64,000 nucleotides of DNA, from assembly GCF_003334405.1 (NCBI RefSeq), contig NZ_QOWM01000001.1; one strand, given 5' to 3'. Every line of letters begins with the position of its first letter. Within the stretch, counting starts at the first letter, position 1. Shown here in pieces: positions 35,097 to 38,957 of the stretch. A program made the translations under genes and the position numbers. A model generated the notes under the pieces. The model searched no databases and was not told the DNA's origin. It was given only the letters and a program-made list of their open reading frames with translations. This stretch comes from Escherichia coli (GTDB taxonomy: Bacteria; Pseudomonadota; Gammaproteobacteria; Enterobacterales; Enterobacteriaceae).

Positions 35097-36455
35097 ATGT
35101 TGAGTATTTTTAAACCAGCGCCACACAAAGCGCGCTTACCTGCCGCGGAGATCGATCCGACTTATCGTCGATTGCGCTGGCAAATTTTCCTGGGGATATT
35201 CTTTGGCTATGCGGCTTACTATTTGGTTCGTAAGAACTTTGCGCTTGCTATGCCTTATCTGGTTGAGCAGGGATTCTCACGCGGTGATTTAGGTTTTGCC
35301 CTTTCGGGGATCTCGATTGCTTATGGATTTTCGAAATTCATCATGGGTTCGGTATCGGATCGCTCGAATCCGCGCGTTTTCCTGCCCGCAGGTTTGATTC
35401 TGGCGGCGGCAGTGATGTTGTTTATGGGCTTTGTGCCATGGGCGACGTCGAGCATTGCGGTGATGTTTGTACTGTTGTTCCTCTGCGGTTGGTTCCAGGG
35501 GATGGGGTGGCCGCCGTGTGGTCGTACTATGGTGCACTGGTGGTCGCAGAAAGAACGTGGCGGCATTGTGTCAGTGTGGAACTGTGCGCACAACGTCGGT
35601 GGTGGTATTCCGCCGCTGCTGTTCCTGCTGGGGATGGCCTGGTTCAATGACTGGCATGCGGCGCTCTATATGCCTGCTTTCTGCGCCATTCTGGTGGCAT
35701 TATTCGCCTTTGCGATGATGCGCGATACCCCGCAATCCTGTGGCTTGCCGCCGATCGAAGAGTACAAAAATGATTATCCGGACGACTATAACGAAAAAGC
35801 GGAACAGGAGCTGACGGCGAAGCAAATCTTCATGCAGTACGTACTGCCGAACAAACTGCTGTGGTATATCGCCATCGCCAACGTGTTCGTTTATCTGCTG
35901 CGTTACGGCATCCTCGACTGGTCACCGACTTATCTGAAAGAGGTTAAGCATTTCGCGCTAGATAAATCCTCCTGGGCCTACTTCCTTTATGAATATGCAG
36001 GTATTCCGGGCACTCTGCTGTGCGGCTGGATGTCGGATAAAGTCTTCCGTGGCAACCGTGGGGCAACCGGCGTTTTCTTTATGACACTGGTGACCATCGC
36101 GACTATCGTTTACTGGATGAACCCGGCAGGTAACCCAACCGTCGATATGATTTGTATGATTGTTATCGGCTTCCTGATCTACGGTCCTGTGATGCTGATC
36201 GGTCTGCATGCGCTGGAACTGGCACCGAAAAAAGCGGCAGGTACGGCAGCGGGCTTTACCGGGCTGTTTGGTTACCTGGGCGGTTCGGTGGCGGCGAGCG
36301 CGATTGTTGGCTACACCGTGGACTTCTTCGGCTGGGATGGCGGCTTTATGGTAATGATTGGCGGCAGCATTCTGGCGGTTATCTTGTTGATTGTTGTGAT
36401 GATTGGCGAAAAACGTCGCCATGAACAATTACTGCAAGAACGCAACGGAGGCTAA
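35097..36455 (+). CDS. glpT: glycerol-3-phosphate:phosphate antiporter (MFS)
   Basis: 452 aa, recognised as GlpT. Confidence 0.95.
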
Positions 36456-36459
36456 TGGC

Positions 36460-37536
36460 ATGAAATTGACGCTGAAAAACCTTAGCATGGCGATCATGAT
36501 GAGCACTATAGTCATGGGAAGCAGTGCAATGGCGGCGGACAGCAACGAAAAAATAGTCATCGCCCATCGCGGTGCCAGTGGATATTTGCCGGAGCATACG
36601 CTGCCAGCAAAAGCGATGGCGTATGCGCAGGGAGCGGATTATCTGGAACAGGATTTGGTGATGACCAAAGACGACAATCTGGTTGTTCTGCATGACCATT
36701 ACCTCGATCGTGTTACTGATGTTGCCGATCGTTTCCCGGATCGGGCGCGCAAAGACGGTCGTTACTACGCGATAGATTTCACGCTGGATGAAATTAAGTC
36801 GTTGAAATTTACCGAAGGTTTCGATATTGAAAACGGTAAAAAAGTGCAGACTTATCCGGGGCGTTTCCCAATGGGTAAGTCCGACTTCCGGGTGCACACC
36901 TTTGAAGAAGAGATTGAATTTGTTCAGGGGTTAAATCACTCTACCGGGAAAAATATCGGTATTTATCCAGAAATCAAAGCGCCGTGGTTCCATCATCAGG
37001 AAGGGAAGGATATTGCGGCAAAAACGCTGGAAGTGCTGAAGAAATATGGTTACACCGGTAAAGACGATAAAGTTTATTTGCAATGTTTTGATGCTGATGA
37101 GCTGAAGCGTATTAAGAATGAGCTGGAACCCAAAATGGGCATGGAGCTCAATCTGGTACAGCTGATTGCCTATACCGACTGGAATGAAACGCAGCAGAAA
37201 CAGCCGGATGGAAGCTGGGTTAATTACAACTACGACTGGATGTTTAAGCCGGGTGCCATGAAACAGGTGGCGGAATATGCAGATGGTATTGGTCCGGATT
37301 ACCATATGTTGATTGAGGAGACATCGCAGCCGGGTAATATCAAACTCACTGGCATGGTGCAAGATGCTCAGCAGAATAAACTGGTAGTGCATCCTTATAC
37401 CGTGCGGTCAGATAAACTGCCTGAATACACTCCTGATGTGAATCAGTTATATGATGCTCTGTATAACAAAGCGGGTGTAAATGGGCTGTTTACTGATTTC
37501 CCTGATAAGGCAGTAAAATTTCTTAATAAAGAGTAA
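36460..37536 (+). CDS. glpQ: periplasmic glycerophosphodiester phosphodiesterase
   Basis: 358-aa product with signal peptide (MKLTLKNLSMAIMMSTIVMGSSAMA) and HRGASGYLPEHT motif. Confidence 0.95.
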   Translation: MKLTLKNLSMAIMMSTIVMGSSAMAADSNEKIVIAHRGASGYLPEHTLPAKAMAYAQGADYLEQDLVMTKDDNLVVLHDHYLDRVTDVADRFPDRARKDGRYYAIDFTLDEIKSLKFTEGFDIENGKKVQTYPGRFPMGKSDFRVHTFEEEIEFVQGLNHSTGKNIGIYPEIKAPWFHHQEGKDIAAKTLEVLKKYGYTGKDDKVYLQCFDADELKRIKNELEPKMGMELNLVQLIAYTDWNETQQKQPDGSWVNYNYDWMFKPGAMKQVAEYADGIGPDYHMLIEETSQPGNIKLTGMVQDAQQNKLVVHPYTVRSDKLPEYTPDVNQLYDALYNKAGVNGLFTDFPDKAVKFLNKE

Positions 37537-37544
37537 TGTTACTG

Positions 37545-37570
37545 CAGGATGGCGTTCATGCGCCATCCTG
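37545..37570 (+). terminator. glpTQ intrinsic terminator
   Basis: 10-bp stem CAGGATGGCG / CGCCATCCTG, followed by T-rich TCTCATATCAAATTTTT. Confidence 0.55.
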
Positions 37571-37577
37571 TCTCATA

Positions 37578-37784
37578 TCAAATTTTTCCAATCGCCACTA
37601 ATTGTTCCATGCACATTTGTAGTAAAAACAGTGGACTGCCTTCTACCGGCTTTTCTTTAGCCAGCAACGAAATCTGTCGATAGAAAGTTGGTTCGAGAGG
37701 AACGGAACACAATTCACCTGCAATGCTTTTCAGCGTTAACTCTGGTTGTAAGGCGATGCCTAATCCCTGTCGAATAAAATTCAT
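37578..37784 (-). pseudogene. yfaH: yfaH, remnant of a LysR-family regulator (C-terminal effector-domain fragment only)
   Basis: 68-aa ORF resembling a LysR C-terminus; no HTH-encoding region upstream. Confidence 0.6.
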
Positions 37785-37998
37785 CGCTGTATCCGCCTGA
37801 TTAAATTCACATTTTATCTGCTGGGCGCACTATTAGTGGTAGTGGCTGGTGGAATCTATGCGCTGCAAATGAAGGGTAAAAGCGGTGTCAAGCTAGTAGT
37901 GGCAAAAGAAATTCATTAATACGACACGTTTCATTAAGATTTTCCTCAGGTAACCACCTATAGTCATTGTCGTTAATAAAAATGACAGGCGATAGGGT

Positions 37999-38649
37999 AT
38001 GGCAGTTTCAGCAAAGTACGACGAATTTAATCACTGGTGGGCAACAGAGGGCGACTGGGTTGAAGAGCCTAACTATCGCCGTAATGGTATGAGCGGGGTG
38101 CAATGCGTCGAGCGCAACGGCAAAAAGCTGTATGTAAAGCGCATGACGCATCATCTGTTTCATTCCGTACGTTATCCGTTCGGCCGACCAACGATTGTCC
38201 GTGAGGTTGCGGTAATTAAAGAACTGGAACGGGCCGGTGTCATCGTGCCGAAGATCGTTTTTGGTGAAGCGGTGAAAATTGAGGGTGAATGGCGAGCGTT
38301 GCTGGTGACTGAAGATATGGCGGGGTTCATCAGCATTGCTGACTGGTATGCCCAGCATGCAGTATCGCCTTATTCTGACGAAGTACGGCAAGCCATGTTG
38401 AAAGCAGTGGCGCTGGCGTTTAAGAAAATGCATAGCATTAATCGTCAGCATGGCTGTTGTTATGTTCGCCATATCTATGTGAAAACAGAAGGTAATGCAG
38501 AAGCTGGTTTTCTTGACCTGGAGAAAAGTCGTCGCCGCTTGCGTCGCGATAAAGCGATTAATCATGACTTCCGCCAGCTGGAAAAATATCTGGAGCCAAT
38601 CCCCAAAGCGGACTGGGAGCAGGTGAAAGCGTATTACTACGCCATGTAA
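37999..38649 (+). CDS. inaA: InaA, Kdo/WaaP-like lipopolysaccharide kinase family protein
   Basis: 216 aa, recognised as InaA. Confidence 0.9.
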   Translation: MAVSAKYDEFNHWWATEGDWVEEPNYRRNGMSGVQCVERNGKKLYVKRMTHHLFHSVRYPFGRPTIVREVAVIKELERAGVIVPKIVFGEAVKIEGEWRALLVTEDMAGFISIADWYAQHAVSPYSDEVRQAMLKAVALAFKKMHSINRQHGCCYVRHIYVKTEGNAEAGFLDLEKSRRRLRRDKAINHDFRQLEKYLEPIPKADWEQVKAYYYAM

Positions 38650-38655
38650 TCGTTG

Positions 38656-38696
38656 TAGGCCAGATAAGACGCATAAGCGTTGTATCTGGCACTACA
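38656..38696. repeat. REP-like palindromic element between convergent inaA and yfaE
   Basis: GTAGGCCAGATAAGACGC ... GCGTTGTATCTGGCACTAC imperfect inverted repeat. Confidence 0.55.
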
Positions 38697-38702
38697 ACCA
38701 AT

Positions 38703-38957
38703 TCACATCTCGATTTCAATATCGCCTTTTGCCCGGCAACAACAGGGCAAAATTTCCCCCGGCTGAATAAAGGCTAACGGTTCGGCAATCCAGTCAACTT
38801 GACCTGCAACCAGGCGTGTGCGACAGGAGCCGCAGTAACCTTCGCGACACTGGTACTCAACCGCCACATTGTGGGATTCCAGCGCCGCCAGAAGGGAAGG
38901 GTGTTCATCCTGGCACAGCAGTTGTGTGCCAGTGATGCGCAGGGTAACGCGGGCCAT
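38703..38957 (-). CDS. yfaE: 2Fe-2S ferredoxin YfaE (NrdB diferric-tyrosyl radical maintenance)
   Basis: 84 aa with CxxxxCxxC cysteine cluster; TGATG overlap with nrdB stop. Confidence 0.9.
   Translation of the reverse strand: MARVTLRITGTQLLCQDEHPSLLAALESHNVAVEYQCREGYCGSCRTRLVAGQVDWIAEPLAFIQPGEILPCCCRAKGDIEIEM

Follow-up and report, generated by a model that had tools for sequence, protein, structure and literature searches.

The window analysed here is a 64,000-nucleotide stretch of an Escherichia coli genome, of which positions 36000-40000 were found by sequence comparison to be base-for-base identical to E. coli K-12 MG1655, as the reverse complement. The gene order along the window is glpT, glpQ (ending at 37536), a 68-codon open reading frame on the minus strand, inaA on the plus strand, yfaE and nrdB/nrdA. 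The small frame (37578-37784, minus strand; 68 codons and a stop) is an exact match to MG1655 b2238, yfaH, which is flagged as a pseudogene in NC_000913.3, and public protein databases carry its 68-residue product under the name 'Putative protein YfaH' (UniProt YFAH_ECOLI). The NCBIfam model NF007272 (PRK09729, YfaH equivalog) matches it over model positions 1-68 with 164 bits, against a cut-off of 139; as this model describes the fragment itself, a score above the cut-off shows identity and not function. In the literature, a search for 'yfaH' turned up nothing beyond incidental listings and its role as a site for marker replacement. In MG1655, yfaH was replaced by a marker cassette, which provided a selectable linked marker for co-transducing and moving gyrA alleles (PMC2714960).

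The frame had been described in the first-pass annotation as the C-terminal 68 or so codons of a LysR-type regulator. It is real, lies on the minus strand and is derived from LysR, but its length was understated. When the DNA was aligned to the intact loci of strains O157:H7 (L001), RS571 (L003) and E8 (L006), homology was found to extend to 37820. The LysR-family remnant thus occupies 37578-37820 on the minus strand, with 80 codons and a stop that correspond to residues 213-292 of a 292-residue intact protein. Over these residues it shares 86% amino acid identity with the syntenic intact regulator of O157:H7 (E = 1e-47), and its DNA is 93-96% identical to, and colinear with, that of intact alleles, with which it shares the stop codon. 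The intact proteins (WP_000176738.1 and WP_000176734.1) are encoded at the orthologous locus with the same flanks, the DNA identity being approximately 94% over the C-terminal 80 codons. In contrast, the MG1655 annotation marks only the 68-codon frame, while the LysR homology runs 36 bp further. PGAP calls the remnant a pseudogene in K-12-like genomes, incomplete and with its N-terminus missing.

Two Pfam domains were recognized in the intact regulator, HTH_1 at residues 3-63 and LysR_substrate at residues 88-267, and the protein also matches many LysR NCBIfam models and PDB LTTRs such as CysB, BenM and OxyR. The first residue left in the remnant is 213, so that the N-terminal winged HTH (PF00126, HTH_1) and the linker helix are missing, together with most of the effector-binding domain (PF03466, LysR_substrate), whose two Rossmann-like subdomains are represented only by what remains in residues 213-292. 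In an alignment with CysB, the remnant covers no more than the last strand-helix elements. The first-pass remark that no HTH-encoding sequence lies upstream was confirmed by translation of the region 5' of yfaH, in which all three minus-strand frames run into stops and no HTH-like stretch appears. Given the loss of the DNA-binding domain and of most of the effector-binding domain, the remnant would be unable to act as a regulator. Judged by its domain content, yfaH is not a functional LysR-type regulator, both of the defining domains being either absent or incomplete.

A second gene fragment, overlooked in the first-pass annotation, was found within the yfaH scar. Positions 37815-37919 on the plus strand contain the last 34 codons and the stop of an MFS transporter gene, equivalent to residues 363-396 of a 396-residue protein, with 94% identity to those residues of the intact transporter (E = 1e-18). 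This fragment is unannotated in NC_000913.3, and in PGAP it figures only as a partial 'hypothetical protein' with a missing N-terminus. A functional MFS transporter would be expected to contain around 12 transmembrane helices; here only residues 363-396 are encoded, without a start codon. Compared with the intact pair (LysR of 292-299 aa; MFS of 396 aa, WP_000660231.1), what is left in K-12 is 27% for the regulator and 9% for the transporter. The MFS fragment also bears on an earlier suggestion, that the LysR remnant shares its upstream region with the inaA promoter. This does not hold, as the native upstream region was common to the divergent MFS gene and is now deleted, and what adjoins the remnant at 37815-37919 is the 3' end of the MFS gene.

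In O157:H7, RS571 and E8, a full LysR gene (292-299 aa, minus strand) and a divergent 396-aa MFS gene (plus strand) lie between glpQ and inaA, and the MFS gene ends 80 bp before the inaA start. A synteny scan beyond E. coli, using one genome per prokaryotic species, revealed the order nrdB-yfaE-inaA-MFS-LysR-glpQ-glpT also in two cryptic Escherichia lineages and in E. whittamii, while in Kluyvera and Pseudocitrobacter the LysR-MFS pair adjoins yfaE/inaA. On this synteny evidence, the intact LysR-MFS arrangement is ancestral. The reverse order of events, with the K-12 state ancestral and the full genes inserted later, was considered and ruled out, given that both remnants are cut within coding sequence and that the outgroup species are intact.

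No specific function could be assigned to the intact LysR and MFS proteins from NCBIfam or Pfam; the best NCBIfam matches were GltC, CidR and CynR for the regulator and the MFS model PRK05122 for the transporter, all far below their cut-offs. The 90%-identity cluster of the transporter WP_000660231.1 takes in several Salmonella enterica serovars and Citrobacter species, which implies that the LysR-MFS module is widespread in Enterobacteriaceae. The C-termini of the intact regulators vary. The RS571 protein (L003 5157-6056) has 299 residues and ends in ...VESGKFDMRQDGA, whereas that of O157 (L001 6887-7765) has 292 residues and ends in ...VVSGKI, the same ending as in the K-12 remnant; a 1-bp indel near the end accounts for the difference. 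The LysR allele of E8 is only approximately 76-80% identical in DNA, which suggests either old allelic lineages or recombination at the locus.

It was also observed that in O157:H7 strain H6437 a 1.7-kb AT-rich segment (L001 5166-6874; 30-34% GC) with one 356-aa ORF is present between glpQ and the LysR gene. The product of this ORF showed no Pfam or NCBIfam match. The segment occurs in around 1,050 of the 5,426 complete E. coli genomes surveyed, in intact-module (O157) as well as scar-bearing (CE0026f, frameshifted) backgrounds. Neither K-12 nor RS571 has it, nor do those loci of cryptic Escherichia (E1V33) and E. whittamii that reach glpQ, a distribution from which horizontal acquisition seems probable.

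The earlier proposal that the 5' part of the regulator had been lost through deletion, and that alignment with intact homologues would define the breakpoint, proved correct in both respects. Three-way alignments with L003, L001 and L006 gave a single gap of 1,879 bp between colinear flanks, or of 1,892 bp when the divergent E8 allele is compared. On the left, the flank containing the LysR 3' end continues through 37820, and the right flank runs from 37813 via the MFS 3' end into inaA. The 8-bp overlap at 37813-37820 is the junction, and it holds one retained copy of the microhomology TTTATCTG; intact alleles have two copies at a distance of 1,879 bp, one within the LysR gene and the other within the MFS gene. 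No filler DNA, foreign bases, IS or inversion is found at the K-12 junction. The deleted segment comprised LysR codons 1-212, the shared divergent promoter region of the two genes and MFS codons 1-362, the native start codon and promoter of the regulator being included. For yfaH there is therefore both an intact syntenic orthologue and a definable breakpoint.

Spontaneous deletions between short direct repeats, arising by microhomology-mediated events or replication slippage, have been described for lacI in E. coli. The yfaH junction resembles them in that one 8-bp repeat is kept, 1,879 bp are lost and no filler is present; it differs in that the event is ancient and its mechanism is read from the scar alone. 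Slippage, or illegitimate recombination at microhomology, classically leaves a single repeat copy without filler, and such a mechanism would account for the junction.

The locus was found to be polymorphic when the region 37400-38100 was compared by megablast with the 5,426 complete E. coli genomes. The K-12 junction allele, detected with a 141-bp spanning probe at a coverage of at least 80%, is present in 3,132 genomes, and the intact LysR-MFS allele (2.3-kb module, coverage of at least 80%) in 1,213. A third allele, represented by UTI89 and 83972 and recognized by a 202-bp glpQ-inaA spacer, was found in 1,057. The three classes together cover 5,402 of the 5,426 genomes, with 58% carrying the scar, 22% the intact module and 19% a near-total loss. 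The UTI89-type spacer (L005 2138-2339, strain 382634_2f) keeps the inaA promoter and approximately 20 bp of the MFS 3' end, and its left 120 bp or so has no match within the intact locus. In this allele the LysR-MFS module seems to have been lost almost completely, in an event of its own. IS1-associated variants are found among the remaining genomes. In strain 2020C08-115 (L007 5287-5984), an IS1 directly connects nudI with the region upstream of inaA, an arrangement implying that the glp/yfaH side was lost or rearranged, and in strain 300081 (L020 570-1266) IS1 lies within the MFS remnant. The seven remnant alleles sampled all agree in their junction coordinates and have five or six derived substitutions in common, a pattern that fits a single ancient origin of the deletion.

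Substitutions within the LysR remnant point to relaxed constraint. Intact alleles that are up to 17% apart in DNA keep QIKYEFNHPDTAISFIRQGLGIALLPELTLKT unchanged, whereas all remnant alleles show the changes Y to C, I to M, S to N or K, L to Q and T to S, with further changes varying among alleles. By the Nei-Gojobori method, dN/dS between the remnant and the nearest intact allele is 0.9-1.3, compared with 0.05-0.12 between intact alleles, the estimate for the remnant resting on small counts (around 15 substitutions in 243 bp). Polarisation with outgroups places 8 non-synonymous and 2 synonymous changes on the branch of the K-12 remnant, small counts that are about the neutral expectation. The start codon of the 68-codon frame (37782-37784) is itself derived, being ATC (Ile) in every intact allele and ATG in every remnant. 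Secondary lesions were seen in small samples, namely a frameshift in the LysR remnant of strain EC1908157 (L019) and the IS1 insertion of strain 300081; the 68-codon frame is open in the other six of the seven remnant alleles sampled. Judged from these substitutions and lesions, the yfaH remnant is evolving neutrally, in the manner of ordinary gene decay.

Taken as a whole, yfaH would be an inert deletion scar of a LysR-MFS pair, produced by one microhomology deletion and subject to neutral drift since, a reading to which a probability of roughly 0.96 is given. The ancestral Escherichia order would have been glpT-glpQ, the LysR gene (minus strand), the divergent promoter region, the 396-aa MFS gene (plus strand) and inaA-yfaE-nrdBA. 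In an ancestor of the K-12-like lineages, one deletion of 1,879 bp between the two 8-bp direct repeats TTTATCTG, one in each gene, would have brought the two 3' ends together, LysR at 37578-37820 (minus strand) and MFS at 37815-37919 (plus strand). Promoter, ribosome-binding site and original start codon would have been lost from both remnants, and the LysR piece presumably is not expressed. It would have drifted neutrally afterwards, with the ATG of the 68-codon frame arising through one later substitution. The inaA promoter, 3' of the MFS stop in a 79-bp spacer, would have been untouched by the deletion.

Several other explanations were weighed. The first-pass annotation had allowed that the frame might be a chance one without LysR ancestry, to be recognized by an intact LysR gene never occurring at this locus in relatives. 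Such genes do occur there, in 1,213 of the 5,426 E. coli genomes, in cryptic Escherichia and in E. whittamii. Beyond the small size of the frame and the lack of an upstream HTH, nothing speaks for chance, and that reading was ruled out outright by the match to the C-terminal end of the intact LysR at the syntenic locus (E = 1e-47, 86% identity), to which the colinear DNA (93-96% identity) and the common stop codon may be added. It is extremely unlikely that the truncation came about through a mobile element or a complex rearrangement, such as an IS-mediated deletion or inversion. IS1 has been active elsewhere at the locus, in the MFS remnant of L020 and the nudI-inaA join of L007, but the K-12 junction contains neither IS nor foreign bases nor inversion, and its colinear flanks meet in an 8-bp direct repeat. 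A transient IS that was afterwards lost precisely could in principle have left such a junction. Moreover, no intermediate allele with an IS at the breakpoint was met in a non-exhaustive search of the 5,426 genomes.

The 68-residue frame might instead encode a functional small protein, either as a stand-alone C-terminal LysR fragment or as a new micro-protein initiated at the post-deletion ATG. Both this ATG (from ATC) and an SD-like AGGCGG 8 nt upstream (from CACCCGG) originated within the remnant lineage, six of the seven sampled alleles have the frame open, and a database entry ('Putative protein YfaH') and an NCBIfam equivalog model exist for the product. Weighing against these points are the dN/dS of about 1 relative to intact alleles, the frameshift in L019 and the lack of promoter-like sequence upstream in a crude scan. 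The product would comprise the last 80 of approximately 205 residues of the effector-binding region only, with no DNA-binding domain; both the reference annotation and PGAP treat it as a pseudogene, and strain construction has made use of a marker cassette in place of yfaH (PMC2714960). A functional small protein is therefore considered very unlikely. In a broader form, which would take in either a newly born, translated 68-aa ORF using the post-deletion ATG and AGGCGG or a selected, repeated loss of the module, the idea builds on coincidences of sequence and is still quite unlikely. If the newborn ORF were true, its frame would have stayed open in most of the scar-carrying E. coli (58% of genomes). 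As for selection, the module has been lost twice in E. coli, once by the K-12-like microhomology deletion and once by the UTI89-like near-complete removal, and this could reflect selection for uncoupling inaA, which lies downstream in the same direction, from LysR-controlled read-through.

That yfaH is an annotated K-12 pseudogene was already known, and it is a textbook deletion remnant. What is new beyond the reference annotation is the breakpoint with its microhomology, the 80-codon extent of the LysR homology, the MFS fragment and the allele frequencies. The scar itself matters little and the added value is descriptive; the annotation could be tidied if the pseudogene were lengthened as far as 37820 and the MFS fragment included. 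The LysR-MFS pair of O157:H7 and other strains is uncharacterised, and work in K-12 cannot address it.

The inaA upstream spacer (37920-37998, plus strand) consists of the 79 bp from the MFS stop to the inaA ATG and lies outside the deletion. It is followed by an intact inaA (37999-38649, plus strand), which encodes a putative lipopolysaccharide kinase. The spacer sequence, with a -10-like TATAGT at 37959-37964, is conserved among Escherichia irrespective of which of the three locus types is present. A search for a marbox-like site in the inaA promoter had been proposed. No match to the 20-bp marbox consensus AYNGCACNNWNNRYYAAAYN with two or fewer mismatches was found in the inaA upstream region, and one weak candidate with three mismatches is located at 37921-37940 on the plus strand; matches of this quality number 138 in the window against 141 expected by chance. 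The candidate ends 18 bp upstream of TATAGT and is largely conserved in Escherichia, and its placement would fit an activator site overlapping the -35 region.

A crude consensus test for sigma-70 promoters and terminators over 37500-38050 returned no call on either strand. A GC-rich hairpin is nevertheless present at 37544-37571, between the convergent ends of glpQ and yfaH and outside the deletion; it went uncalled by the scan because it lacks a T-run. With a 12-bp stem and a folding energy of -22.5 kcal/mol (z = -5.4 on the plus strand; it folds on the minus strand too, z = -3.4), this hairpin is probably the glpQ terminator. An Rfam search of 36000-39500 gave only two sub-threshold matches, to RmaA at 37529-37628 (E = 0.43) and to naRNA4/REP at 38658-38725, and no RNA gene that would explain the region. 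Just 3' of inaA, at 38650-38725, lies a REP-like palindromic element, for which the naRNA4 score is 26.7 bits compared with a gathering score of 59.5.
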